Sequence record: PQ826431.1 | Length of the DNA stretch: 64,000 bases | Origin: a phage | Direction: 5' to 3' (one strand) | Shown: in pieces, positions 391-63,802 of the stretch | Layout: each line of letters begins with the position of its first letter | Position numbering within the stretch: the first letter of the stretch is position 1 | Notes under the pieces: model-generated | The model's input: the letters and a program-made list of their open reading frames with translations, nothing else | Databases searched by the model: none | Told to the model about the DNA's origin: nothing | Position numbers and translations under genes: made by a program

Positions 391-444
391 TTGACAATTT
401 TACAAAACAGTTTAAATTAACAATATAGCGGCAATGGTGCCGCT
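391..444 (+). promoter_or_regulatory. promoter (-35 TTGACA) plus conserved 5' stem-loop AGCGGCA-ATGG-TGCCGCT
   Basis: TTGACA at 391-396; hairpin ~427-444 immediately upstream of RBS of 464 ORF. Confidence 0.45.
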
Positions 445-463
445 CATATGAAGAGGAAACAAA

Positions 464-610
464 ATGAATACATCTAATCGCGCAGAAAAAATTCAATCTT
501 CCAAGATCCGCAAGGCCTGGAACGAGGAAGTGATCCGCAAAGGTGACAAGCGTAATAAAACAAAGCGCGGGAAGAGTGACAAATATAATTGGATGGATTT
601 AGAGGATTAA
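464..610 (+). CDS. small highly basic protein (48 aa)
   Basis: ATG with RBS GAAGAGGAAA; not in ORF track (<60 aa); followed by terminator. Confidence 0.4.
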   Translation: MNTSNRAEKIQSSKIRKAWNEEVIRKGDKRNKTKRGKSDKYNWMDLED

Positions 611-618
611 CATAACAA

Positions 619-644
619 GGGCGCATCAAGCGCCCTTTCTTTTT
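619..644 (+). terminator. intrinsic terminator GGGCGCA-tcaa-GCGCCC + T-run (copy 1 of 3)
   Basis: GC hairpin followed by TTTCTTTTT. Confidence 0.7.
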
Positions 645-665
645 ACATGTAGAGGATAAACAAAA

Positions 666-851
666 ATGACTTTAAACGAGCTTAAAACAGCCTACAACGC
701 AACATTAAAAATAGCCGTGCGTTACCGTGACGAGTACGGTTTTATCGCGCAGGGCGTGATCCTGGGCTTTTCTGACGATGGTTTGATCTATGTTGATGCA
801 CATCATAACAAGGTAAAACCTGAAAACGTCATTAGCATAAAATATCTTTAA
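666..851 (+). CDS. hypothetical protein (61 aa)
   Basis: ORF track; RBS GAGGATAAAC upstream. Confidence 0.5.
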   Translation: MTLNELKTAYNATLKIAVRYRDEYGFIAQGVILGFSDDGLIYVDAHHNKVKPENVISIKYL

Positions 852-857
852 AAGTGG

Positions 858-914
858 TTGACACCATAACCGGACCTGTTAAACTGTATTACATCAGGCG
901 GGGAATAGTTCCCC
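858..914 (+). promoter_or_regulatory. promoter (-35 TTGACA) plus 5' stem-loop GGGGAA-TAG-TTCCCC
   Basis: TTGACA 858-863, TGTATTAC box, hairpin ~900-914. Confidence 0.45.
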
Positions 915-936
915 ACCATACAAAAAGGTAAATATT

Positions 937-1143
937 ATGATCACCGCAAAACAAGAGAAAATCATTATCGACGTTGCAGCCGTTGCCGCTATTGCTATTA
1001 TTGGATCTTATTATGATACCCGTTTCCCGTCGGCTATGCATGAGGTCGCCGCCGTTGCATCAGTTGGCGTACTGTTTTACGTTGGTAAACGCTATTTATC
1101 ACCAATGATTAACAAGCTGACACCGTGGAAAAATAAAGGTTGA
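937..1143 (+). CDS. small membrane protein (68 aa)
   Basis: ORF track; hydrophobic stretch; RBS AAAAAGGTAAA. Confidence 0.5.
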   Translation: MITAKQEKIIIDVAAVAAIAIIGSYYDTRFPSAMHEVAAVASVGVLFYVGKRYLSPMINKLTPWKNKG

Positions 1144-1198
1144 CCCTGTTTTACATTGTGTTATAGTTATCGTGTAGGGCGGCAATGGTGCCGCGCCC
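1140..1198 (+). promoter_or_regulatory. promoter (TTGACC-16-TATAGT) plus 5' stem-loop GGGCGGCA-ATGG-TGCCGCGCCC
   Basis: -35/-10 spacing 16; hairpin 1177-1198. Confidence 0.5.
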
Positions 1199-1214
1199 CT
1201 TTGAGGATGCAATC

Positions 1215-1499
1215 ATGAGTAAAGCTAACACCGTGCTAATGTTTTCCCTGATTAATGATCTCGCTTACTTGTCCAACATGACGCAGGAGGGTAACACATT
1301 AACGGCAACATTCACCAATAAGCTTGACCGAGTGATCATCATCTCACTGAAAACAGTTAGTAAAGGCTTTTACTCGTTAGCTTATCATTGGATCACCGAT
1401 ACCGATGAGACAAGCCAGGACTATAGCGCCCCTTTCCCTGAATCAATGGCACGGGAGATCATCGCCGCCGTTGTAAATGATGGTTTGTTTACTGAATAA
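1215..1499 (+). CDS. hypothetical protein (94 aa)
   Basis: ORF track 1185-1499 trimmed to internal ATG with RBS GAGGATG; track start lies inside hairpin. Confidence 0.55.
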   Translation: MSKANTVLMFSLINDLAYLSNMTQEGNTLTATFTNKLDRVIIISLKTVSKGFYSLAYHWITDTDETSQDYSAPFPESMAREIIAAVVNDGLFTE

Positions 1500-1517
1500 A
1501 ATAATTTAGAAAAAGGC

Positions 1518-1574
1518 TTGCAATCATTTTGAGATAGTGTATATTTAATTCATAGGGCGGCGGGAATAGTTCCC
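1518..1574 (+). promoter_or_regulatory. promoter-like (-35 TTGCAA) plus 5' stem-loop GGGAA-TAG-TTCCC
   Basis: same module architecture as 858-914. Confidence 0.4.
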
Positions 1575-1597
1575 AAAGCAAACGAGAGGATTACACG

Positions 1598-1717
1598 ATG
1601 AGCAAGTACACAGTAGAATACACGGTAGAAAATCCGGCAGTATCCGAAGGTAAAAAGATGACATTTGCCATCAGTATAATCGCTTTCGTTGTCACTATCT
1701 TATCAATCATGTTATAA
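1598..1717 (+). CDS. small membrane peptide (39 aa)
   Basis: ATG after RBS GAGAGGATTAC; hydrophobic C-terminus; not in track. Confidence 0.35.
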   Translation: MSKYTVEYTVENPAVSEGKKMTFAISIIAFVVTILSIML

Positions 1718-1727
1718 GGTGCACACC

Positions 1728-1889
1728 ATGAAAACAACAGACATTATCAAAGAGATCGCCCTTGCCGCTGGCGTTGAAGTCGAGGAAGTGATCGCGCTCA
1801 ATCTTACAGAAAACGATCTGCGCAACTATGAAGCGGAAAGCGTGAAAGCAAGCGGCGCGGTCCTGGTATATGATCCGGCTAACAAGTAA
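1728..1889 (+). CDS. hypothetical protein (53 aa)
   Basis: track ORF 1689-1889 trimmed to ATG with RBS AAGGTG. Confidence 0.45.
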   Translation: MKTTDIIKEIALAAGVEVEEVIALNLTENDLRNYEAESVKASGAVLVYDPANK

Positions 1890-1898
1890 GGGGATAAC

Positions 1899-2009
1899 AT
1901 GAATCCGAAAGATATGCAAGCATGGAAAGGGTACGACGATCTAAGCGCCTTGCGCAATAAGTCAAGCCGTAACCTTAGACGGTTGGAAGCAAAGAAAAAG
2001 AAAAAATAG
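1899..2009 (+). CDS. small basic protein (36 aa)
   Basis: ATG with RBS AAGGGGATAAC; not in track. Confidence 0.3.
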   Translation: MNPKDMQAWKGYDDLSALRNKSSRNLRRLEAKKKKK

Positions 2010-2010
2010 T

Positions 2011-2066
2011 TTGACAAGTCCGCCTAGTCTGATAATATGTATCTTGTAGGGCGGCAATGGTGCCGC
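2011..2066 (+). promoter_or_regulatory. promoter (TTGACA-16-TAATAT) plus 5' stem-loop GGCGGCA-ATGG-TGCCGC
   Basis: sequence motifs. Confidence 0.5.
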
Positions 2067-2087
2067 TCACAAGAAGAGAGAAAAATC

Positions 2088-2372
2088 ATGAAAATCACAA
2101 AAAGCCTAACTAATTATGCAGCACGTCGCGGATTATGTTTAACCGTTGAAAACTTAGGGAAAGAAGACTTTTTGTGTTTTTGGGAGCTTGAAAATGATTG
2201 CGAGTGGATGTTTTCTTATTCTATCTGCGAAGATCAAAACGGTTGTTTGTTAACCTGGCGCGGTAATATCTATTTACCGGAAGAAATTAAAGAAGAGTTA
2301 CCAGGTACGATCATGACAGAGAGACAGCTTAAGGAAATGATTAATTTTGTAGGGCAAAACATTAAAAAATAA
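2088..2372 (+). CDS. hypothetical protein (94 aa)
   Basis: track ORF trimmed to ATG after RBS AAGAAGAGAGAAAAA. Confidence 0.55.
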   Translation: MKITKSLTNYAARRGLCLTVENLGKEDFLCFWELENDCEWMFSYSICEDQNGCLLTWRGNIYLPEEIKEELPGTIMTERQLKEMINFVGQNIKK

Positions 2373-2373
2373 T

Positions 2374-2437
2374 TTGACAGCACGCAAACAACGTAGTAAA
2401 GTTTATTACATAGAGCGGCGGAATGGTCCAGCCGCTC
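2374..2437 (+). promoter_or_regulatory. promoter (-35 TTGACA) plus 5' stem-loop GAGCGGCGGA-ATGG-TCCAGCCGCTC
   Basis: sequence motifs. Confidence 0.45.
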
Positions 2438-2458
2438 ACAACAGAAGAGAAACAAATC

Positions 2459-2629
2459 ATGATCCCGACTATGTTTTATGTATCGCGCAAAGGTCACAAT
2501 ATTTTTTGGTCTGAAGATTTAAATGAAGCTATGACGTTTGCCCGTGATCGTGTTGCTATCGGTGGCGTTAATATCACCGTGACCGATGAAAACGGCATTG
2601 AATACTATAACGGCGATGATGAAGAGTAA
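2459..2629 (+). CDS. hypothetical protein (56 aa)
   Basis: track ORF trimmed to ATG after RBS AGAAGAGAAAC. Confidence 0.5.
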   Translation: MIPTMFYVSRKGHNIFWSEDLNEAMTFARDRVAIGGVNITVTDENGIEYYNGDDEE

Positions 2630-2673
2630 TCAACAAGGCGGGATTAATCCCGCCTATATTAAAGGGCAATATA

Positions 2674-2811
2674 ATGAAAACTTTCAACGCAACAGCCTCG
2701 ACAATTGGTTATATTATTACAGTACAAGCCGTTGACCTGGTAGCGGCAGCAAACAAGATTAAAAAAATGATCCCAACAGGCAGCGAATTTTCCGTTTGGG
2801 AAGTAAAATAA
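2674..2811 (+). CDS. hypothetical protein (45 aa)
   Basis: ATG downstream of hairpin GGCGGGA-TTA-TCCCGCC; not in track. Confidence 0.35.
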   Translation: MKTFNATASTIGYIITVQAVDLVAAANKIKKMIPTGSEFSVWEVK

Positions 2812-2814
2812 AGC

Positions 2815-2876
2815 TTGACAATAATTTGTTATCTAGTAAAGTGTATTACGTAGGGCGGGGCAATGGTGCAACGCCC
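2815..2876 (+). promoter_or_regulatory. promoter (-35 TTGACA, TGTATTAC box) plus 5' stem-loop with ATGG loop
   Basis: sequence motifs. Confidence 0.45.
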
Positions 2877-2894
2877 ATTAATGAGGGTAGAATC

Positions 2895-2999
2895 ATGTTA
2901 GAGAAAATTTTCACGGTTGCAGTGGTTGGCCTGGCGTTATCGGTTGGAGTAGTTGCAACTATGGCTAATATGATCCTATCTTCCCACGGTATCGGTTAA
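2895..2999 (+). CDS. small membrane peptide (34 aa)
   Basis: track ORF trimmed to ATG after RBS GAGGGTAGAATC; hydrophobic. Confidence 0.35.
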   Translation: MLEKIFTVAVVGLALSVGVVATMANMILSSHGIG

Positions 3000-3009
3000 G
3001 GTGAAACAA

Positions 3010-3225
3010 ATGATCACGAACAAAACAGGCAAAACGGAATTTTTACGCGGCTTACAAGTTGGTAAGCCTGAGATCTGGCATTGCACGAAGTCCGCGCATA
3101 ATGAAATGAAAGATTTTACCGCTACTTTACAACGTGTTAAAATATCTATCACACAGAAAAAAGCCTTGTTAGTAGTAGAAAACGAGATCCCGCAAACTAT
3201 TATTATTGTCGAGCGTACAGCATGA
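3010..3225 (+). CDS. hypothetical protein (71 aa)
   Basis: ORF track; ATG after RBS AAGGTGA. Confidence 0.5.
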   Translation: MITNKTGKTEFLRGLQVGKPEIWHCTKSAHNEMKDFTATLQRVKISITQKKALLVVENEIPQTIIIVERTA

Positions 3226-3608
3226 AAACAGAAATCATTATTGAAATCATCAACGGCTATAAAGAAGCCTTTATTTTTGCTGAATCAGCAAGGGATCATG
3301 AAGGTAATTTTATTGAATACTTAGACTATTATGATTTTTCTCCTGGTGCGGATGAACGGATCGCCCAGGATGTAACAGCCTTTATTAATGCTAATCTTGC
3401 CGCTATCTCTGAGGCAATGAGCGACGGCGCAACAGCCATCCAGATCGGGAGTGATTTACATTTTACCCGTAACGGTCACGGCATAGGCTTTTGGAATCGC
3501 CCTGAAATATACACCACTAACACGGCAAACCGCTTAACCAGTGCCGCCGAGGTCATGCCGGACGTGTCGGCTTACATTGGGGAAGATAATTTGATTTATA
3601 TAGAATAA
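3222..3608 (+). CDS. hypothetical protein (128 aa)
   Basis: ORF track; start overlaps upstream stop (coupling). Confidence 0.55.
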   Translation: MKTEIIIEIINGYKEAFIFAESARDHEGNFIEYLDYYDFSPGADERIAQDVTAFINANLAAISEAMSDGATAIQIGSDLHFTRNGHGIGFWNRPEIYTTNTANRLTSAAEVMPDVSAYIGEDNLIYIE

Positions 3609-3614
3609 AAAGTA

Positions 3615-3673
3615 TTGACACCGATCCCCAATATGTTACTATTTACCACGTGGGCGGGAAATGGTTTCCCGCC
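3615..3673 (+). promoter_or_regulatory. promoter (-35 TTGACA) plus 5' stem-loop GGCGGGAAA-TGG-TTTCCCGCC
   Basis: sequence motifs. Confidence 0.45.
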
Positions 3674-3696
3674 AGGTAATCAAAAAGGTAAATACT

Positions 3697-4086
3697 ATGC
3701 GCAACCTGGTTTCTGTTTCTAACGTTGAAAAATTCCAATCTTTACAGGGTATCATTAACAACGTAGCGCCTTTTTTAGTCAATGGCTTGATTGCAAAGAT
3801 GAAGAATAAGCATCATGCGGCATGGTCTGCTTACTGCTTTGATAATGATGAAAAAGCGGCTGAAATGATGTTAAATATGCTGTTAGACAGTGTAGAATCA
3901 TCTTTACCGGAAAACATCGCAGAAGAGATCACCTATCGTTATAATATGGCGATCACTTACCAGGAAGTGGCACAGTTCAACATGATGGATGATGACGAAC
4001 AACAGGATCAAGAAATGTTTTGGGAGTATGCAGATCGTCAATCGGCTTTTGATGAAAAGTTAGCGATGTATTATAACGAATATTAA
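3697..4086 (+). CDS. hypothetical protein (129 aa), acidic C-terminus
   Basis: track ORF trimmed to ATG after RBS AAAAAGGTAAATACT. Confidence 0.6.
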   Translation: MRNLVSVSNVEKFQSLQGIINNVAPFLVNGLIAKMKNKHHAAWSAYCFDNDEKAAEMMLNMLLDSVESSLPENIAEEITYRYNMAITYQEVAQFNMMDDDEQQDQEMFWEYADRQSAFDEKLAMYYNEY

Positions 4087-4102
4087 TACACGGTAGAAGA
4101 AA

Positions 4103-4126
4103 GGGGCGCACTAAGCGCCCTTTTTT
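4103..4126 (+). terminator. intrinsic terminator GGGGCGCA-ctaa-GCGCCC + T6 (copy 2 of 3)
   Basis: hairpin plus T-run. Confidence 0.75.
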
Positions 4127-4473
4127 GTATTCTTTTTTCACGATGGAAACAACACGTAAAGAATAGGCGTAAAGGTGGCGTAAAACCATCTAAAACCGAC
4201 TGTAACCGCTTAAACAAGGTAGGGATGATTAATCACCTTACCAGGATGAAAAAGCCGTTATAAAGCTATCTAGAGCGTTTAAAGCACATAGGAAATAATT
4301 TGCTTTTTATCTTGCCTTTTATTCTGCTTTTGATTATTATTATGGAACGGGCGGCACCTGGGGGACAGGGGAAGATAATCACCGGAAGATCCCGCTATAT
4401 ATCGATAGCTAATACCTATCAAACAACAAAACATCAAAGAGATAAACTATCAAATCTTTACAATCCTACATAT

Positions 4474-4502
4474 TGACCGATAAATCACAACAGTTTAATA
4501 TT
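4474..4502 (+). promoter_or_regulatory. promoter (TTGACC-17-TAATAT)
   Basis: consensus-like -35/-10 upstream of 4550 ORF. Confidence 0.45.
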
Positions 4503-4549
4503 GTTTTTAGAGGTTAGAATATTCCCCAAACGAAAACAGGAAAAAGAAA

Positions 4550-4786
4550 ATGAAAGAAGTCATGATCCTCAAAAAATCACCTATTTTACGTGGTGGCTTT
4601 ATCGCTTACTCTGATGATCTGTTAATTGCAACAGTTGCAAAAATACTAAAATCAGAAGATGACAGTAAAAACGGCGTTTATCGTATCTGTTTCACCCGTG
4701 GAAAATTACAAGGTAAGATCGCTTATGCTTTTGATTTACAAGATGTAAACGATAAAATATGCGCTGTTATTGATTATGCAAAATAG
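4550..4786 (+). CDS. hypothetical protein (78 aa)
   Basis: ORF track; RBS AACAGGAAAAAG. Confidence 0.55.
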   Translation: MKEVMILKKSPILRGGFIAYSDDLLIATVAKILKSEDDSKNGVYRICFTRGKLQGKIAYAFDLQDVNDKICAVIDYAK

Positions 4787-4798
4787 TTAATTTTCTTA

Positions 4799-4827
4799 TT
4801 GACACCGGATCACGCTTGCATTATTAT
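4799..4827 (+). promoter_or_regulatory. promoter (TTGACA-17-TATTAT)
   Basis: good consensus; followed by degenerate TAGGGC box. Confidence 0.5.
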
Positions 4828-5299: not shown

Positions 5300-6780
5300 G
5301 CCCGAACAATGTTGATAGCTTCCGCCTATGAAAAACCGACACAGAACAAAACTGAATAAATCACGGTATCGAGCTAATCAACCAGCAAACGAATAACCAT
5401 ACACCCCAGGGCAACAGGCTGTTAGAGAGCTATTTAGAGCGGTTAAAATCGATCAACAACCAACAACAAACCATCAAAAACACGCTTTTCTTTCCTTTCC
5501 AGTGCAATGATAACCATTATCATCTACCCATGATTATCTATGCAATATAAGCGCATAACTATAATGTTGATAATAGTTCGCAACAACTAACCAACCAACA
5601 ACCTAAAACAATAAGCAAACTAATCATAATCAAAGGAATAATAGAAAGATGATTGATAACGACAAACAATCAAACCATGATGAATACTAAGCAAGATAAC
5701 GATAACACGACAAAACAACCAACTAACGAACAATAACAAACGAAACCATTAAAATAATAACTATTGCCATAATAGTGACTGAATGAAATCATTCCCAGGA
5801 TCATCATTAGCACGCTATGCCGGACACATAGCGAGCTAATAATAAGCCAACTACACCCCAACAATCATAACCATCGGTGATGGTTATTTCTTGTTACTGC
5901 GTAGCTTGCAATAATTGCAAGCGTAATGACGCTTACACTTATTGCGCTGGCTTATTATTAGCATTATATGTAATTACCAAGATCATAACATTAGCGCAAT
6001 AACAATAATCATTGTAATAATTACAGTATGAGATCATTAGCATGGCAATAATTATTGGGGGCAATGGGAGGATGATTATCATCATTCCGATACATTGCAC
6101 ACTATGCACATAATAGAATAAAAGTCAATACTTTTGGGGGCGAAATGTTACCGCCACAGGCGGGAATGTTGAGCATCTTCTCTTAAACGTAAATAAAATC
6201 AGAAAATTCTTGATTTATTCTGGTTTTTATGTTAATAAACGTTTAAATAATAATCATTCTCATATAAATAATAGTCTGCTTGTCATGAGCGGGATTAGTT
6301 GACATTGTTCCGTCATATGATGAAGTTGCCAAACCATTGATAAATAAGTGTTTGTGTGATTTATAATCAAGTGGCCCACCTTGTCGCTACGTTGGCATAA
6401 GCCTTGCATAAGTCATTGAATACGAATGATAATTATTCTCATTCGCATGATATTTGGGAATTGTCGCTGCGTGGACCTGACGGCCCGAAAATTCGCGTTA
6501 AGCACTTCTTACGTATGCGCCATGATTTTTGCCATATCCTATTGATTCTATTAGATATTCTTGCCATGATTGCCATGAAACAGGGTGTCCCGAAATAATC
6601 TCTCCCCGTAGATATTTTGGGTTACTTTTTATACAAGAGTGGGGTGTCAAAAATAATCGGTATATATGGGATAATTGATAGGAATCCCCTATGATAATTC
6701 GATTGTAATTCCCTAAGATTGATCGTATGATGTTGGTGATTGATGATTGCCATGAAAGATGGCTAACGATGAGAGGAGAT
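5300..6780. other. long non-coding region: G-poor A/C-rich tract with CAA/AAC repeats (5300-5880) then AT-rich palindromes (5880-6400)
   Basis: no RBS-supported ORF; strong strand compositional skew; palindrome GCTTGCAATAATTGCAAGC near 5903. Confidence 0.6.
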
Positions 6781-21229: not shown

Positions 21230-21522
21230 TTAATAGATGGTAGATAGATGATCATAGTTTATCTACCTTCACTTACGTTTCATACCTCACTATCGTGAGT
21301 AACATGAAACATTATTATATAGAAATCTACTACTCGCTATCGCTCGTAAACATATGTTTAGGGTACCATATTTTTTTGAAAAAGTCAATGCTGATTCACC
21401 TATCAATTATCTGTTTAAGATAAGTCTTACCTATCAATCTAAGTCTTAACTAGTATTGCACCTATAGTAAGACTATTCCTATAGTTATTAACCCTCTTCT
21501 TCTGTAGAATGTAATTAGATCC
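21230..21522. repeat. intergenic region with short repeated motifs (CCTATCAAT, AAGTCTTA, CCTATAGT) and inverted repeat GGTAGATA...TATCTACC
   Basis: no ORF; repeated words visible by eye. Confidence 0.4.
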
Positions 21523-21551
21523 TTGACAAACTCACAAAACTTGTGTTACAT
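21523..21551 (+). promoter_or_regulatory. promoter (TTGACA-17-TTACAT)
   Basis: -35 consensus upstream of 21590 ORF. Confidence 0.45.
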
Positions 21552-21589
21552 TGTGTCTCACAGGTGAATAATACCGAACAGGAGGAAGA

Positions 21590-26393: not shown

Positions 26394-27047
26394 CTATACC
26401 AGACTTTCAAGGTATTTGTCAAGGGCTTCTTGATCACCTTGACAAACATAGCAACGGAAGTCTTGAGCCGAAGGTTGTTTATTTTCATCCCAATCCCAAT
26501 AAACATTACCTTTATAACGCGAGCCAGGGAACTCAAAAGAGGCTGTATGTGTAATGTATCCTGGGCCACCAGTGAAATCACAGAATGAGAATTGAGGGTA
26601 TGCCGCCTTTACTGCCTCAATAAACCAAGCTTTACGATCTAAAGCTTCATTGATGCTATACGCATGTCTCTCCATTTCTTCCCACGTTTTCCAGACACTT
26701 CTCTCATCAGGAGAAAAGACAAGCCATTCTGGAAGGTATAGAGTGTCATAGTAATCATCATATTCGATCTCGGAGGCGCACGAAGCTGACTCCTCCAGTT
26801 TTGAGTAATCAAAAGCAGAATATACCCACCAACCATCTTCCAGTAACGCTTTGATAGGGACGAAGCCTTTATCAGCATATTGATCGAATTGTTTGACACG
26901 GTGGCTTGTGCAGTCTTCAAACTCACATTCTAAACGATATGCACCTTTTCGACGAGCCTCAAGACCGTGTGTACTGAAAATAACAACACTTCCTTCACCA
27001 TCATTACGATCTACTTGATAAGCAACCACTGGTTTTGAATTTGACAT
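26394..27047 (-). CDS. hypothetical protein (217 aa)
   Basis: ORF track. Confidence 0.55.
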   Translation of the reverse strand: MSNSKPVVAYQVDRNDGEGSVVIFSTHGLEARRKGAYRLECEFEDCTSHRVKQFDQYADKGFVPIKALLEDGWWVYSAFDYSKLEESASCASEIEYDDYYDTLYLPEWLVFSPDERSVWKTWEEMERHAYSINEALDRKAWFIEAVKAAYPQFSFCDFTGGPGYITHTASFEFPGSRYKGNVYWDWDENKQPSAQDFRCYVCQGDQEALDKYLESLV

Positions 27048-27730
27048 TATTTCTCCTTATCTAGAAGATTGTTAGACAAAAACACTGCACGAGCAAAACC
27101 ACGTGCGGTTAGTGATCTAAGTTGTTTTGTTTTTGCACTAGCTCCACCTAAGCTTTTCCAACCCCAGAAGCAGCCTATATGATCTACTGGTTTCTTCACT
27201 GGTTGAACAAAACCATTGCCGTGCCAAATACAAGTTTTCTTTGTATACCCATCACGGGTAGGCATTTTAGGATGAAAACTTCCTTCCTCTTCAAACAAAT
27301 ACCCACCATACTCATAAGGATCAAAGTAAAAATCAGGTTTACGCCATAAGGTTGAAAGTTTACCTACTGGGTTTTCAATCATCCAAGGAACATTATATTT
27401 GTTACCCAAAGCTTCCACTACACGAATATTAGCTAAAGCTTCATCTAATTCCTCTGTGCTACGTTCGTGTTTGCTACCACTACCTGCTAACATAGTGCAG
27501 GGTGGAAATCCAAAAATAATATCGGGTTTAGGTATCCCATGATCTTCAGGGTTGAATGTAGAATCTATCCAGGCATTCACATAAGTTATGTTTGGGTGCT
27601 CCATCCTAACCTCGTATTTACCGTGATCCCCTTCATCAGCGTTTACACAAAAACACTTGTGACCTGCTTCGGCATAACGTAACACCATGATCCCAGATCC
27701 GTCAAACATAGACAAAACTGTTTTACTCAT
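27047..27730 (-). CDS. C5-cytosine methyltransferase-fold protein, short (227 aa), Pro-Cys-Thr in place of Pro-Cys-Gln
   Basis: motif I-like FDGSG, motif IV-like DIIFGFPPCTMLAGSG, motif VI-like ENPVGKL; track ORF trimmed to ATG after RBS GGAGGGG. Confidence 0.5.
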   Translation of the reverse strand: MSKTVLSMFDGSGIMVLRYAEAGHKCFCVNADEGDHGKYEVRMEHPNITYVNAWIDSTFNPEDHGIPKPDIIFGFPPCTMLAGSGSKHERSTEELDEALANIRVVEALGNKYNVPWMIENPVGKLSTLWRKPDFYFDPYEYGGYLFEEEGSFHPKMPTRDGYTKKTCIWHGNGFVQPVKKPVDHIGCFWGWKSLGGASAKTKQLRSLTARGFARAVFLSNNLLDKEK

Positions 27731-28118
27731 TACCCCTCCATTCAAGACAAGCCATAACTTTACGCCAATCACTTTCTGTAAGAAAAATCTCGTTTGCTTT
27801 CTTCCACAAATCTAAATCGTGAAGGGTTGGAATACGATATGTTAGTTCACAGAATCTATGCTCTTCTTCTGTAATATAACCAAAATGCAGAGCCACATCG
27901 TGAAACCAACACCAACCATGCATCTCTCGAACAACATGGTCATGCTGAGACATTGTTTTATGCCGTAAACCTAACCAACAAGGAACAGATACTTTAGTAG
28001 TCTTTAATCTGTGATCAACAGTATTAGAGTATTCAATAATAGCTGTCAGTTTCAATCGTGCTTTTTCTAAATCCTCATGCGTCACTTTGAAATAACTTTC
28101 TGAAAGATATCCACACAT
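27723..28118 (-). CDS. hypothetical protein (131 aa)
   Basis: track ORF trimmed to ATG after RBS GAAGGAGG. Confidence 0.5.
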   Translation of the reverse strand: MCGYLSESYFKVTHEDLEKARLKLTAIIEYSNTVDHRLKTTKVSVPCWLGLRHKTMSQHDHVVREMHGWCWFHDVALHFGYITEEEHRFCELTYRIPTLHDLDLWKKANEIFLTESDWRKVMACLEWRGNE

Positions 28119-34146: not shown

Positions 34147-34656
34147 TTAAACAAAATAAAATGGTTGAGAGAGGCCCAAACGATTCTTTGGGTCGTATAC
34201 ATACCAAGCGTATGCTGTCTTATCTGTTCCACCTGCAACAAACGAAGGCCGTTCTGAAAGGACTATAAGGTTTGTTGGTGGATTCTTTTGATGGAACTCT
34301 CGTCGTTTCTTTGACTCCAAGAAGCCCAACCGAAGAAGATAAATACAAACATCCGCCTCTTTTAAGCTCTTTTCCAAGAACTCCATTGCTAACTTAAATG
34401 GAGGATTTGTGATTATAATGTCGGGACGATTTTCCCATTCATGACTAAAATAATCTTTACCTTCTTCAAGTTCGCAATATTCTGAACCTTCAGGAAAATG
34501 GCGATAAATCGCTTCAGCTTCACCTCTGCAAGGTTCTGCAAAAACCCAACCTTCTTCCTTTAGATTTTTGAAATCTATAACACTAAACAAACTATTGATT
34601 GCTTTTTGCGGTGTCGGATAATAATCGCTCGTTGGGCGATCATAATCTAATGCCAT
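34147..34656 (-). CDS. putative N6-adenine (amino-)methyltransferase-like protein, 169 aa
   Basis: catalytic-type IIITNPPF (N/D-PP-F/Y) motif and N-terminal YYPTP motif. Confidence 0.5.
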   Translation of the reverse strand: MALDYDRPTSDYYPTPQKAINSLFSVIDFKNLKEEGWVFAEPCRGEAEAIYRHFPEGSEYCELEEGKDYFSHEWENRPDIIITNPPFKLAMEFLEKSLKEADVCIYLLRLGFLESKKRREFHQKNPPTNLIVLSERPSFVAGGTDKTAYAWYVYDPKNRLGLSQPFYFV

Positions 34657-59723: not shown

Positions 59724-59836
59724 TTCTTACCTCCTTTGTTGTCAAAATAACTTACCAGAACATCGTGAACCACACACATGGCAAAAATCAGAACAATTGT
59801 TGTCAGGACTGGATTCTCACTAATTAGTGCTATCAT
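59720..59836 (-). CDS. small membrane peptide (38 aa)
   Basis: track ORF 59720-59917 trimmed to ATG after RBS GGAGGTGG. Confidence 0.35.
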   Translation of the reverse strand: MIALISENPVLTTIVLIFAMCVVHDVLVSYFDNKGGKK

Positions 59837-60143
59837 CTTTAACCACCTCCAATTGCCTTTCGAGTTTGACTTTGTTTGAGAACTGATAATGACACAACTT
59901 ACATTGCATGTCAACAATCTGATCGTGATTTAACCCTACAATTTTAACTTCCTTTGCACCATCCCACTCCAAATACTCAAAGCCATCCAAATGATTACTC
60001 TTGTCCAACAGGAATGCTATCTGCTGCCATTCAATCTGAATGTCATTTAAATGATATGCTGCACAGAAGATATCTTCATAGTAAAAGACGATCATTGTCA
60101 TTGCTTCGTCCAGCACAACTACCTCTTGTCTTGTAAATCTCAT
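59820..60143 (-). CDS. hypothetical protein (107 aa), first gene of minus-strand block
   Basis: ORF track; RBS TAGGAGGCT. Confidence 0.55.
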   Translation of the reverse strand: MRFTRQEVVVLDEAMTMIVFYYEDIFCAAYHLNDIQIEWQQIAFLLDKSNHLDGFEYLEWDGAKEVKIVGLNHDQIVDMQCKLCHYQFSNKVKLERQLEVVKDDSTN

Positions 60144-60624
60144 TCTAGCCTCCTAAACGCGTCTCTGACGCACTTTTTATATATAAGATGATAAATCACC
60201 TTACCTAGTAAGTAAACTTGCTCTACGAGCCTCTTATGAAGCTTGTGTTATAGGCTATACTATTGCTACCTGTTTAAGCAAGGTTTTTGCACACAGAAAA
60301 TAATTTTTAATAAAACTCTTGACTTTTGTGTTCGAAGTATGCTACCCTGGAAATCTATTAACGAGCGCAGCGAGTTAAGGTTTTAGGTTGTTGATGTAGT
60401 ACTCTGTACTCAAGTACTGTATTCCGTACTAGATTAATAATTATTAAATATTAATAATAAATAATTATTAGATCTAACAAACAGGTACAGTGTATCAGAA
60501 CTGGTACGTACAGATCAACTTCTATCAATTAAAAATAAAATAATAAATTATTATAAATAATACTTGATCTATAGATCAGTATGAAGTACAGTACGGAACA
60601 TCTTAACAAGAATGGAGGTGTGCA
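60144..60624. other. divergent AT-rich intergenic region with nested palindromes; candidate origin / bidirectional control region
   Basis: palindromes TGATCTATAGATCA, TAATAATTATTA tracts, distant inverted repeats GTATTCCGTACT / AGTACGGAAC; no ORF. Confidence 0.5.
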
Positions 60625-60810
60625 ATGATTAGTGAGAATCCGTGCAAATGGCATCATGTGCCTATTAAAGATTGTATGTCTTGTAATCCACGTTCTATTT
60701 ATAACATTGCATCTTATGATGACGACAATGTGTTAGACGATGATGAAGGCTGGGAGGATTTAGATTGGACTGGTTATGAAACCAAAAAGGATAAAATTAT
60801 TCCTAGTTGA
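60625..60810 (+). CDS. hypothetical acidic protein (61 aa)
   Basis: ORF track; RBS GGAGGTG. Confidence 0.5.
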   Translation: MISENPCKWHHVPIKDCMSCNPRSIYNIASYDDDNVLDDDEGWEDLDWTGYETKKDKIIPS

Positions 60811-61602: not shown

Positions 61603-61677
61603 GGCCCTGTAGCTCAATGGGAGAGCTGTCGGCTCATAACCGATAGGTAGCTGGATCGAAACCAGCCAGGGCCACCA
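61603..61677 (+). tRNA. tRNA-Met (anticodon CAT; initiator/elongator/Ile2 not resolved), incl. CCA
   Basis: manual cloverleaf: acceptor GGCCCTG/CAGGGCC, D GCTC/GAGC, anticodon loop CTCATAA, T-arm GCTGG-ATCGAAA-CCAGC. Confidence 0.8.
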
Positions 61678-61679
61678 AC

Positions 61680-61754
61680 GTCTTTATGGTGTAATGGATA
61701 GCACAGGAGTCTTCTAAACTCTTAGTCAAGGTTCGATTCCTTGTAAAGACACCA
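61680..61754 (+). tRNA. tRNA-Arg (anticodon TCT), incl. CCA
   Basis: manual cloverleaf: acceptor GTCTTTA/TAAAGAC, anticodon loop CTTCTAA, T-arm CAAGG-TTCGATT-CCTTG. Confidence 0.8.
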
Positions 61755-61950
61755 GAACATTTTAACATGAATTAGCTCAAGTGATTTGAACCCACTACTG
61801 ATCATGGTGGCAGAGAATGAGGCAAGTATGTCAGACATTATAAACAAAGGCCACGGTTATATTAGAAGACATAAATGCTCGAAGAGCACCGTTCGTTGAG
61901 AACGGGGGTTGGTGGAGTCACCATTCATGGTAAAATGTTTTAAAAAACTA

Positions 61951-61979
61951 TTGACAACTAACATTATTTTATGTTAGAT
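61951..61979 (+). promoter_or_regulatory. promoter (TTGACA-17-TTAGAT)
   Basis: consensus -35; upstream of tRNA-Ser. Confidence 0.5.
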
Positions 61980-61988
61980 TATAAGTAT

Positions 61989-62079
61989 GGAAGGGCAAAT
62001 CGACGTGGCGACGAAAACGGTCTTGAAAACCGCCGAGCTTGAAAGAGCCTTGGGAGTTCGACTCTCCCTCCTTCCGCCA
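61989..62079 (+). tRNA. tRNA-Ser (anticodon TGA), type II long variable arm, incl. CCA
   Basis: acceptor GGAAGGG/TCCTTCC, anticodon loop CTTGAAA, variable-arm hairpin GCTT-GAAA-GAGC, T-arm GGGAG-TTCGACT-CTCCC. Confidence 0.7.
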
Positions 62080-62084
62080 GATTA

Positions 62085-62170
62085 GGTAGATTGGTGAAAT
62101 GGTAGCCACAACAGTTTGCTAAACTGTAGTCGGAAACGGCGTGTAGGTTCGAGTCCTACATCTACCGCCA
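62085..62170 (+). tRNA. tRNA-Ser (anticodon GCT), type II, incl. CCA
   Basis: acceptor GGTAGAT/ATCTACC, anticodon stem ACAGT/ACTGT loop TTGCTAA, T-arm GTAGG-TTCGAGT-CCTAC. Confidence 0.75.
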
Positions 62171-62303
62171 AGTTCTTTTTAATATAGCTTACTTTAATAG
62201 AGTAAACTTTCAGCAGATGGCCCCCCCACCATCTTACTGATAACTCATAGTTAGTGGTGTGAACACTGGCTATTTTAAAAAGAATTTTAAATATTAGTAT
62301 TTA

Positions 62304-62391
62304 GGTGAGTTAATTCCGTAGGGGTAGCGGGGCAGACTGTAAATCTGTTATCATTGCGATTCGGGTGGTTCGACTCCATCACTCACCACCA
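62304..62391 (+). tRNA. tRNA-Tyr (anticodon GTA), type II, incl. CCA
   Basis: acceptor GGTGAGT/ACTCACC, anticodon loop CTGTAAA, long variable arm. Confidence 0.7.
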
Positions 62392-62397
62392 AATTAA

Positions 62398-62483
62398 GAT
62401 GAGTTGGCTGAATGGTTTAAGCGGCGGACTGTTAATCCGTGTTCGAAAGAACGATATAGGTTCAAATCCTATACTCATCGCCA
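62398..62483 (+). tRNA. type II (long variable arm) tRNA; manual fold gives anticodon GTT (Asn), identity uncertain
   Basis: acceptor GATGAGT/ACTCATC, 3-bp D stem, anticodon stem GCGGA/TCCGT loop CTGTTAA, variable hairpin GTTC-GAAA-GAAC, T-arm ATAGG-TTCAAAT-CCTAT. Confidence 0.5.
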
Positions 62484-62490
62484 GAATTAT

Positions 62491-62567
62491 GGACTTGTAG
62501 AGTTAAGGTAAACCCCCAGTCGCCAAGAGGCTTCTGGAATTGCAGGTATCGAATCCTGCCGAGTCCC
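62491..62567 (+). tRNA. tRNA-like element with non-canonical anticodon domain (possible pseudo-tRNA)
   Basis: acceptor GGACTTG/CGAGTCC and T-arm-like GCAGG-TATCGAAT-CCTGC present, but no 5-bp/7-nt anticodon arm. Confidence 0.3.
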
Positions 62568-62686
62568 AGAAAAGAAACAGGGTCGCTCCCTGTAAGTCGT
62601 CCAACTGAAGCCCACTGCGGTGTTCCTCCTCCCACAGTTTAACTGTGTTCTGGTCAACATCAAGCATGGTTGAAGGGGCGCAATAT

Positions 62687-62762
62687 GCTTCAATAGCTCA
62701 GTTGGTAGAGCACTTGCCTTGTAAGCATGAGGTCGTAGGTTCGAGTCCTACTTGGAGCACCA
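62687..62762 (+). tRNA. tRNA-Thr (anticodon TGT), incl. CCA
   Basis: D-arm TAGCTCAGTTGGTAGAGCA, anticodon loop CTTGTAA, T-arm GTAGG-TTCGAGT-CCTAC; one T-T mismatch in anticodon stem. Confidence 0.75.
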
Positions 62763-63037
62763 ACACAACATTAAGAGCACTGTGATTGATCGTCGTATCC
62801 TGTGCACAAGGTCTGTTCGAAAGACAGTGTTCTTAGTATTGTGTTGATCACACAAAAAGAGTCACCTGAAACTTGACCGGAGTAGGGTTGGATGGGGTAA
62901 AAGAAGAAGCGGCTCTCCCATCGACAGCAACGAAGAATAATATTTGACTTTGGTTTTGTATTATTTTAAGTTAGCTTACCGAACGTAGGGCTAGTCACCC
63001 AATGGGATACTCGTCACTGTCCCACTCAATAAAACTA

Positions 63038-63068
63038 TTGACAACCAATAGTAAAATGTAGTATAGTA
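63038..63068 (+). promoter_or_regulatory. promoter (TTGACA-17/18-TATAGT)
   Basis: consensus -35; upstream of tRNA-Gly. Confidence 0.5.
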
Positions 63069-63078
63069 AAGAGGTAGG

Positions 63079-63152
63079 GCGTTCTTGGTGTAGCGGTAGC
63101 ATTCCGTCCTTCCAAGTCGGCGGCACGAGTTCGATCCTCGTAGAACGCTCCA
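63079..63152 (+). tRNA. tRNA-Gly (anticodon TCC), incl. CCA
   Basis: acceptor GCGTTCT/AGAACGC, anticodon loop CTTCCAA, T-arm ACGAG-TTCGATC-CTCGT. Confidence 0.75.
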
Positions 63153-63250
63153 AATTATTTAATAAAGGGTTGCCAGAAAACTTTCTCTTTTACTCATGGT
63201 TTTCTCCTTCTCTCACACCTCTTCTGGTTGCCCTTCATTAAATGATTTAT

Positions 63251-63326
63251 TGGTTTGTAGTGTAGTCAGGTAGCACACGACACTTTGACTGTCGTAGGTT
63301 TGGTTCAAATCCAGACAGACCAGCCA
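63251..63326 (+). tRNA. tRNA-Gln (anticodon TTG), incl. CCA
   Basis: acceptor TGGTTTG/CAGACCA, anticodon stem CGACA/TGTCG loop CTTTGAC, T-arm TTTGG-TTCAAAT-CCAGA. Confidence 0.7.
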
Positions 63327-63331
63327 TATAA

Positions 63332-63408
63332 CGGAATTTAGCTCAGTTTGGTAGAGCATACGCTTTGGGAGCGTAGGGTCGCAGGTTCGAATCCTGCAAT
63401 TCCGACCA
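63332..63408 (+). tRNA. tRNA-Pro (anticodon TGG), incl. CCA
   Basis: acceptor CGGAATT/AATTCCG, anticodon stem TACGC/GCGTA loop TTTGGGA, T-arm GCAGG-TTCGAAT-CCTGC. Confidence 0.8.
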
Positions 63409-63414
63409 ATTTAA

Positions 63415-63488
63415 TGTTTCGTAGTTCAATGGTAGAACCCACGACTGATAATCGTGAGACACAAGTTCGATTCTTGTCGAAACAACCA
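63415..63488 (+). tRNA. tRNA-Ile (anticodon GAT), incl. CCA
   Basis: acceptor TGTTTCG/CGAAACA, anticodon stem CACGA/TCGTG loop CTGATAA, T-arm ACAAG-TTCGATT-CTTGT. Confidence 0.75.
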
Positions 63489-63490
63489 AT

Positions 63491-63560
63491 TTCCCGTTAG
63501 ACTTACAGGATAAGAGTTCCACAACTTATTGTGATGCTGGTTCGAATCCAGCACGGGATA
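63491..63560 (+). tRNA. tRNA-like element with degenerate anticodon arm (possible pseudo-tRNA); no encoded CCA
   Basis: canonical T-arm GCTGG-TTCGAAT-CCAGC and acceptor TTCCCGT/ACGGGAT but anticodon region forms CACAA-CTTA-TTGTG hairpin (4-nt loop). Confidence 0.3.
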
Positions 63561-63566
63561 CCTAAT

Positions 63567-63645
63567 AGCGGGATAGAGGAGTCTGGTCGTCCTCGCCAGT
63601 TTCATATGCTGGAGATCATTGGTTCAAATCCAATTCCCGCCTCCA
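63567..63645 (+). tRNA. tRNA-Met (anticodon CAT), second copy, incl. CCA; A1-C72 unpaired
   Basis: acceptor AGCGGGA/TCCCGCC, anticodon stem CCAGT/GCTGG loop TTCATAT, T-arm ATTGG-TTCAAAT-CCAAT. Confidence 0.65.
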
Positions 63646-63760
63646 AATATCGCTTGCCAGCGGTATCTTTGAAGACCTTGCCTGGTTCCTTCTAAGATGG
63701 AGGGGTGCGACTCCTTAACGCACAATTATAATAAAGCATTTCAAATTAACAGTATTTATT

Positions 63761-63785
63761 AGCCTCCTTATTGGAGGCTTTTTGC
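63761..63785 (+). terminator. intrinsic terminator after tRNA cluster
   Basis: hairpin AGCCTCC-ttatt-GGAGGCT + TTTTT. Confidence 0.7.
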
Positions 63786-63802
63786 TATCTATTGAATAAA
63801 AC

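Follow-up and report, generated by a model that had tools for sequence, protein, structure and literature searches.

A divergent intergenic region with three predicted promoters in a phAPEC8-like phage, and the question of whether it is also a replication origin

Positions 60144–60624 of a 64,000-nt stretch of phage DNA (record PQ826431.1; the whole stretch is called the window here) form a gap of 481 nt that parts two gene blocks, and the question is what such a gap is for. A preliminary description, made from the letters alone, saw in it a candidate origin of replication or a hub that controls transcription in both directions. Both ideas can be compared with the layout of the gap itself, with related genomes and with systems that have been studied elsewhere.

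The junction, its neighbours and its relatives

The source phage is a Phapecoctavirus (Stephanstirmvirinae), a phAPEC8-like myovirus of E. coli with a genome of about 150 kb. Members of this genus have been isolated widely and serve in phage-therapy work. The gap has a GC content of 0.318, as against 0.386 for the window. On its left lies the first gene of a minus-strand block (59820–60143), and on its right the first plus-strand gene starts at 60625, behind a ribosome-binding site (RBS; GGAGG, 60614–60618, plus strand) that is also annotated in ESCO13. Because the minus-strand gene has its ATG at 60141–60143 and the plus-strand gene starts at 60625, the junction is divergent, as had been noticed at the outset; the accompanying statement that the minus-strand genes end at the gap has to be turned around, as the minus block begins its transcription there. 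This block starts with small genes of unknown function and goes on with genes for RNA ligase, DNA ligase, exonucleases, ribonucleotide reductase and two methyltransferases. The right block opens with three small genes on the plus strand, behind which lies a tRNA cluster (61603–63642). The genes next to the gap encode small proteins of unknown function, which are typical of early regions. The first rightward product, an acidic protein of 61 amino acids with Cys and His residues, belongs to PHROG 26411, a family without a function. Searches of Pfam and PHROGs with ten neighbouring proteins yielded no function, and a protein-guided search of IMG/VR with the two flanking proteins returned one locus for one of them and none for the other.

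Some further features of these blocks are worth recording. Two small DNA methyltransferases are encoded on the minus strand at 27047–27772 (PHROG 757) and 34147–34656 (PHROG 799), neither of which matches Pfam; inspection by eye shows FPPC and ENP motifs of a C5-cytosine-like kind in the first, and an N6-adenine NPPF motif in the second. At 61989–62075 there is a tRNA-like sequence that matches the tRNA-Sec model alone and falls under its threshold (37.4 bits, vs 47), and at about this place ETEC-TG has an annotated tRNA-Ser. In a low-GC stretch after the tRNA cluster, 63732–63786 gives a weak RyhB-like match (29.4 bits, E = 0.016).

The 1.3 kb round the gap is 94–99% identical to 65 Phapecoctavirus records, and since all the carriers are so similar, conservation within the genus weighs little. 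The comparison was extended to two sister lineages, 'Wecvirus' (phiWec188, phiWec179 and an IMG/VR contig) and Justusliebigvirus (PHB05), which have the same junction in much-diverged sequence. A Seunavirus locus was considered for a wider comparison and dropped for insufficient synteny. Small ORFs annotated in ETEC-TG inside the gap (60243–60350 on the plus strand and about 60530–60655 on the minus strand) were rejected as genes, since indels in the relatives shift their frames.

Three predicted promoters and their leaders

Pairs of −35 and −10 hexamers at a spacing of 16–19 nt occur on both strands of the gap and point outward, toward the flanking genes. The suggestion of a bidirectional control hub is supported by three predicted promoters of the sigma-70 type, one leftward (PL) and two rightward (P1 and P2). 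Although the sequence around them drifts apart, their −35, TG and −10 elements persist in Phapecoctavirus, 'Wecvirus' and Justusliebigvirus, and both the elements and their conservation can be read directly from the alignments.

PL (60216–60188, minus strand) was found by a consensus scan and consists of TTTACT (60216–60211), a 17-nt spacer and TATCAT (60193–60188). Its −10 region is conserved in the three-genus alignment, and a 13-mer of the spacer, AGGTAAGGTGATT (60194–60206 on the plus strand), is invariant in the three genera. The 5' leader of the leftward operon (60149–60171, minus strand) contains a hairpin, GCGTC-aga-GACGC (60159–60171), followed by an RBS (GGAGG, 60149–60153) and the ATG at 60143. 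In Justusliebigvirus PHB05 the pairing of this hairpin is kept with a changed sequence (AGCTC...GAGCT). The scan scored the same hairpin as terminator-like on the plus strand, where no transcript reaches it. Elsewhere in the window, in another gap of 213 nt, there is a partial duplicate of the left half of the gap (4224–4301), in which GATGATTAATCACCTTACC (4224–4242) matches the PL −10 and spacer at 94.7% and GCACATAGGAAATAATTT (4284–4301) matches the stretch just upstream of P1 at 88.9%.

P1, the distal one of the two rightward promoters (60297–60348, plus strand), is made up of an A/T run (60297–60315), the −35 TTGACT (60319–60324), the TG of an extended −10 (60340–60341) and the −10 TACCCT (60343–60348), a layout written as TTGACT-N15-TGc-TACCCT in a pattern scan. 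Five cassettes from three genera all have TTGAC, TGn and TACCCT unchanged, and so do 15 distinct cassettes, the versions obtained from an IMG/VR pattern scan filtered for an upstream promoter. That scan gave 59 matches (57 DNA stretches), 10 of them with a promoter upstream, and the rest are about what chance would give in a collection of this size. Every genome sampled has three such cassettes: one in the gap on the plus strand, one at 21388–21332 of the window on the minus strand, and one at 74.7 kb of 536P1, an ordinary promoter that points the same way as its gene. The latter two have no A/T tract within 420 nt.

The cassette at 21388–21332 lies inside a 360-nt gap (21230–21589) and opposes the surrounding plus-strand genes. 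Conservation of its promoter and of the first ~70 nt of its transcript extends to Justusliebigvirus and Citrobacter phage Tr1, and the cassette could drive an antisense or non-coding RNA, or an ORF of 64 amino acids (21255–21061). A different series is found at 391–4827 of the window, with at least seven near-consensus promoters that each have a similar G+C-rich stem-loop within about 10 nt (e.g. GGGCGGCAATGGTGCCGC); this resembles the cassettes of promoter and stem-loop in early regions of T4-type phages.

Downstream of P1, the leader has a hairpin at 60358–60378 (plus strand) with an outer stem (TTAAC/GTTAA), a tandem GA/GA internal loop, a GC/GC stem and a GCA loop. The box CGAGCGCAGCGAG (60362–60374) is invariant but for the N positions of the loop (GCA, GAA, GATA or GGGA), and the hairpin sits at about +10 to +35 in all 15 cassettes. 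The outer stem is observed to covary: 89.7% of its cells are paired, as against 77.9 ± 3.3 in shuffles (none of 500 reaches the observed value) and 25–42% when the partners are slid, and 11 cells have double changes. From this covariation it follows that the P1 element is a real hairpin in a single strand, and its G-U pairs favour RNA over DNA, that is, a strand-specific structure. The hairpin is followed by a short tandem repeat, AAGGTTT(T) (60375–60390), which has 2–4 copies among the relatives and differs in length in anhysbys, UP17 and Ro121lw.

A hairpin of this kind raises the possibility that the interval from P1 to P2 acts as RNA, either as a structured leader or as a short non-coding RNA, with one or more hairpins that would stabilise the transcript or, in a nut- or put-like manner, make the polymerase resist termination over the untranslated leader and the tRNA cluster. 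The covariation, the G-U pairs and the fixed position in 15 of 15 cassettes all agree with such a role, the leader folds better than shuffles (z = −2.5, for an RNA of 276 nt), and the operon carries about 2 kb of untranslated tRNA genes. However, beyond the hairpin the interval is unconserved between genera and varies in length within the genus, the scan found no terminator after it, and a search of 60144–60624 against Rfam 15 gave no match even with E up to 1 (at the gathering score it found tRNAs only). No N-like factor is known. Such an RNA is rather unlikely to be what the interval is for.

P2, the proximal rightward promoter (60564–60592, plus strand), has the −35 TTGATC (60564–60569), a 17-nt spacer and the −10 TACAGT (60587–60592), and includes two GATC sites. 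It is positionally homologous to TTGACT-N17-TAGAGT in both sister genera, with GATC just after the −35 in each, and the three genera have a common geometry in which an A/T tract lies beside the −35 and the −10 is followed by about 25 nt, the RBS and the ATG. P2 contains one of the perfect palindromes that had first drawn attention to the gap, TGATCTATAGATCA (14 nt, 60565–60578). The palindrome is indeed present, and because P2 maps there by homology with the sister genera, it is the −35 and spacer of this promoter. The consensus score of P2 is 8/12, which is under the threshold of the scan, and its −10 is absent in the EP57 record. That record (130.7 kb) is without ~38 nt (~60577–60614), which takes away the P2 −10 and the right arm of a GTAC repeat described below, and it is also without ~20 nt around 60245–60265.

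TTGATC is a −35 at the other divergent junction of the phage as well (76152–76268 of 536P1). There, back-to-back promoters occupy 115 nt, with no A/T tract and no repeat array. As that junction packs two promoters into so little DNA, about 250 nt of the gap are not explained by the needs of promoters. The gap is a real feature and not a random one, and its build goes beyond that of a minimal divergent promoter region.

Judged by these sequence elements, the gap is probably a three-promoter transcription hub at one of the two divergent junctions of the phage. Host RNA polymerase would start leftward at PL, and the transcript would have a short leader with a 5' hairpin, followed by the 35-kb arm for nucleotide metabolism and recombination. 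Rightward, it would start at the tandem promoters P1 and P2. P1 would act as a member of a promoter class found three times per genome, whose transcripts open with the conserved hairpin, and P2 would start transcription with its −10 about 25 nt before the RBS of the first small gene, ahead of the tRNA cluster, with the A/T tract at 60527–60562 as a putative UP-like element upstream of it. That the promoters fire, when they fire, and what the A/T tracts do is something we infer. A search of the literature found no transcriptome paper for the Stephanstirmvirinae, and no earlier description of these elements was found in the literature searched. In the Wecvirus relatives an extra gene of 70 amino acids with its own promoter is found between PL and P1 (2573–2785, minus strand, in two loci), so what the hub contains can change from genus to genus.

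A/T tracts, dyad symmetry and the GTAC array

The long A/T tracts that had been pointed out in the gap are confirmed as two pure A/T runs of 38 nt (60433–60470) and 36 nt (60527–60562). The next-longest such run in the window has 19 nt and lies in the same gap, the chance expectation for the long runs is 2–4e-4, and they are also the longest two in a complete relative of 149,471 bp. In the genome of this relative, the A/T stretch is the least stable duplex over 40 bp as well as over 150 bp (z of about +5, nearest-neighbour energies). At any other promoter in the genome, the A/T stretch upstream reaches about half the length of these two tracts. Tract 1 (60430–60476 in full) is a near-palindrome of 47 nt with the flanks TAGAT and AGATCTA, a self-match of 87.5% (E = 2e-9) and internal periods of 7 and 17 nt (TRF). 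It is not followed by a convincing promoter, and no counterpart was found at the same position in the sister genera. Tract 2 (plus strand) ends one base (c, 60563) before the P2 −35, in the position of an UP element, and a pure A/T tract of 23–50 nt adjoins the P2 −35 likewise in Wecvirus (23 nt) and in Justusliebigvirus (39–50 nt).

A second perfect palindrome of 14 nt, TTAATAATTATTAA, lies at 60434–60447. Perfect palindromes of at least 14 nt are rare, with 7 in 64 kb, and two of these 7 are in the gap; among first-order Markov resamples of the gap, 7% hold one. The distant inverted repeats, GTATTCCGTACT (60419–60430) and AGTACGGAAC (60590–60599), are also as described, with 9 complementary bases, and they turn out to be one register of a larger dyad in which 60414–60469 is matched with 60539–60594 (74% over 57 nt). 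An inverted repeat of 15/17 flanks about 150 bp of the gap. The centre of the dyad (60477–60526) includes GATCTAACAAACA, which is common to Justusliebigvirus, as well as GGTACAGT and the palindrome GTACGTAC (60504–60511). A GATC at 60513 is inside the centre and another at 60471 is just outside it; four GATC sites occur within 107 nt, a density that is not significant once the possible windows are counted. As single-stranded DNA, the 216-nt core folds with z = −4.3, and none of 200 shuffles folds as well.

The strongest signal, which the first reading had overlooked along with the three promoters, is an array of GTAC sites, at 60399, 60406, 60414, 60426, 60485, 60504, 60508, 60586 and 60591. 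These are 9 of the 66 GTAC sites of the window, and they fall within 196 nt (Poisson 1.5e-12), although GTAC is depleted across the window (observed/expected 0.36, or 2.8-fold). In a whole genome that was examined, this is the sole such cluster. The left arm (60397–60431) has four GTACT units at a period of ~7 nt; most relatives have five, and the window is down one unit through a change from GTAC to GTAT at 60419. In 536P1 the left arm is GTACTCT x4.7 (TRF). The right arm, AGTACAGTACGGAAC (60585–60599), is an inverted copy of the left arm and overlaps the P2 −10. The array is absent in the sister genera, which have the neighbouring genes in common. Its persistence in a GTAC-depleted genome hints at a constraint that the hub does not account for. 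The rate of change of GTAC is ~1.8x that of an average 4-mer among the good-quality genomes compared, a mild excess that does not decide whether the site is hypermutable. The proposal of an operator array has no direct support; the GTAC repeats are limited to one genus and look slippage-built. The repeats were compared by eye with LexA sites (CTGT-N8-ACAG) and with NarL heptamers, and in both cases the critical positions misfit.

It is worth noting that the depletion of GTAC in the window is in line with that of CCGG (0.35) and GGCC (0.38). In the error-prone BI-EHEC record (OL505078.1), 25 of 41 aligned GTAC sites are changed, nearly all of them to ATAC or GTAT, at an overall mismatch of 1.4%. 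These changes come either from faulty base calling at modified GTAC sites or from a genuine loss under selection.

In the middle part of the gap, tract 1 and the left GTAC arm seem to have arisen by a duplication within this lineage: the 74% match over 57 nt is one between the left module and the inverted P2 module, and both repeat copy numbers and tract lengths vary among strains. The sister genera share GATCTAACA(A/G)ACA, which in Justusliebigvirus comes soon after the P1 box. On this evidence, the simplest history would be slippage and inverted duplication within Phapecoctavirus. Slippage with a 7-nt period and an inverted duplication of the P2 module would produce both the dyad symmetry and the distant inverted repeats. 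This history accounts for the symmetry, and by itself assigns it no function.

Symmetric GTAC arms could also mark a genome terminus, a packaging site or an invertible switch. The pac site of phage P1 has a two-sided repeat layout, which the arms of the gap recall, and the 15/17 inverted repeat with its ~150 bp in between would suit such a site; the nieznany record (MN850598.1) even has its break inside the A/T tract. That break is most easily put down to the assembly, in A/T sequence of low complexity. The termini are elsewhere: the 329-bp direct terminal repeat of Schickermooser, present at both ends of its record, maps to 6172–6500 of the window, 54 kb away, so the physical ends of this phage type lie within the window, and a terminus or pac site in the gap was rejected. 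The published length of the terminal repeat is 328 bp (PMC6563267). As for a switch, no inverted form was found among the full-length matches listed from 65 records, which are co-linear and in single pieces, and the annotation of the adjacent 30 kb has no recombinase. A terminus, packaging site or switch in the gap is thus extremely improbable. The left edge of 6172–6500 coincides with the 100 nt of lowest GC in the window (6176–6275, GC 0.19).

Origin readings and comparison with known systems

As the gap holds the most easily melted DNA of the genome, it is a reasonable candidate for a site where replication starts. Cumulative GC skew over a whole genome, the check that the preliminary description had proposed, does reach its minima at the two divergent junctions (76 and 146 kb) and its maxima at the two convergent ones (39 and 111 kb). 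However, it turns at all four switches of gene orientation and so follows the coding strand, which makes it uninformative on an origin, and as evidence it was set aside. Of the four orientation arms, the one on the right of the gap shows the weakest skew (0.075, vs ~0.15–0.17 elsewhere), and these magnitudes are at odds with a single origin here. For rV5, the skew has likewise been reported to track the coding strand (PMC3606486).

An origin driven by an initiator protein, as in oriC, lambda or plasmids, would use the GTACT pentamers or DnaA boxes as binding sites for a protein that melts the A/T tract. The array has some of the right looks, with 4–5 direct GTACT units by the A/T tract and inverted copies on the far side, and with four GATC sites within 107 nt. 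Nevertheless, the gap contains no DnaA box (TTATCCACA) with up to one mismatch and no IHF core; boxes with two mismatches number 2 within 100 nt of the gap, vs 2.3 expected per 481 nt, which is the chance rate. The units have 5–7 nt, vs 17–22 nt for the usual iterons, the array is absent in sister genera that share the neighbouring genes, and the GATC density is, as said, not significant. Origins of the iteron type (lambda, plasmids, T4 oriE) combine several direct repeats of ~12–22 bp, set by an A/T-rich region, with an initiator gene around or beside them; here, no initiator-like gene is adjacent to the gap and the neighbours have no known domain. It is very unlikely that the gap works in this way.

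Another candidate is an origin primed by transcription, which may coexist with the hub. A transcript from P1 (or P2) would invade the A/T dyad 80–200 nt downstream, and the persistent R-loop would prime the leading strand of a T7-like replisome, as at T4 oriF/oriG and the primary origin of T7. The analogy draws on the order of the parts, in which the conserved P1 (60319–60348) is followed by the least stable duplex of the genome (60430–60580). Justusliebigvirus has the same succession of promoter, ~200-nt spacer and long A/T tract, Wecvirus has a weaker form of it, and the dyad with its repeat array is unique in the genome. In relatives, a Pol A polymerase and a gp4-type helicase-primase belong to a T7-like replisome (PMC3606486), and three active origins of T4 are located at points where transcription diverges (PMC3016281). 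On the other hand, the skew does not discriminate, and it is weakest in the rightward arm, which would be co-directional with the fork. An upstream element of the promoter would explain the A/T tract beside P2 equally well, no such tract lies within 420 nt of the other two P1-type cassettes, and natural indels in tracts and arms are tolerated, with EP57 and dw-ec as variants that point to tolerance of partial loss. A transcription-primed origin is possible, but less likely than not.

In a stronger form of this idea, phAPEC8-type phages would use the gap as their primary replication origin, made out of elements for transcription. Initiation by host polymerase at P1 would open the DNA, the GA-bulged GNA hairpin would form on the RNA or on the displaced strand, and the RNA would invade the record-length A/T dyad as an R-loop and prime the T7-like replisome. 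The three P1-type cassettes would then be three initiation sites, with the GTAC array as a genus-specific accessory site. This form is improbable.

Whichever reading is preferred, the analysis yields coordinates that can be tested: three predicted promoters, a class of leader hairpins found three times per genome across the subfamily, and the most unwindable segment of the genome. If the origin were real, the T4/T7 design of a promoter with an unwinding element would extend to a group of myoviruses that depend on the host polymerase, and there would be a handle for engineering Phapecoctaviruses. If the gap is not an origin, it is an ordinary though ornate early promoter hub.

Several known systems resemble parts of the gap. 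The lambda nut and HK022 put elements are located just downstream of divergent early promoters. The P1 hairpin resembles them as a conserved hairpin in the first ~35 nt of the transcripts from a small class of promoters, and the comparison extends to the variation, which in P1 is limited to the stem (where it is compensated) and the N positions of the loop. The P1 element differs in that it has no boxA and no known N-like protein; its internal loop is a tandem GA, its other loop reads GNA or GNNA, and its function is putative. A second likeness is to the mini-hairpin GCGNAGC / GCGNNAGC, found in the priming sites of phages G4, St-1 and alpha3, in RSF1010 ssiA and in the early promoters of phage N4 (PMC13037366). 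The core of the P1 box, GCGCAGC (60365–60371), fits this motif, as do the paralogue cores GCGAAGC, GCGATAGC and GCGGGAGC, in which N alone varies. The bare motif is not enriched genome-wide, with 28 and 35 copies vs ~26 expected. The mini-hairpin is a DNA motif, whereas the P1 outer stem has G-U pairs that favour RNA, and a link to priming is putative.

Among replication origins, those of the oriC type share an A/T-rich unwinding region and several GATC sites with the gap, which in contrast is without DnaA boxes or an IHF site above chance and without 13-mer repeats. The primary origin of T7 has the tandem promoters 1.1A and 1.1B, followed by an A/T-rich stretch. It resembles the gap in these tandem promoters beside an A/T segment; both also lie in linear genomes whose terminal repeats are short, and both go with a replisome that has Pol A and a gp4-type protein. 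T7 uses its own RNA polymerase, whereas the predicted promoters of the gap are host-type, and the position relative to the genome end is different, the gap being ~54 kb from the terminal repeat, or ~36% of the genome.

Similar in design are T4 oriF (uvsY) and oriG, where, as in the gap, a promoter stands ahead of an A+T-rich element that unwinds easily; they act through an R-loop and need no initiator protein or conserved origin motif. They too are found at a transcriptional divergence where nucleotide skew turns (PMC3016281). However, the T4 origins have MotA-dependent middle promoters with the unwinding element directly downstream, in a minimal origin of ~100 bp, while the gap has what look like plain sigma-70-type promoters, tracts 80–200 nt downstream of them and a dyad of GTAC repeats.

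The three-promoter hub also bears a likeness to the tandem promoters of the E. coli rrn operons, since both have tandem promoters before stable-RNA genes (here the tRNA cluster) and an A/T tract at the proximal −35. Tandem promoters of the rrn type carry UP elements of ~20 bp, whereas the tracts of the gap are pure A/T over 36–38 bp, and one of the two is a palindrome and duplicated.
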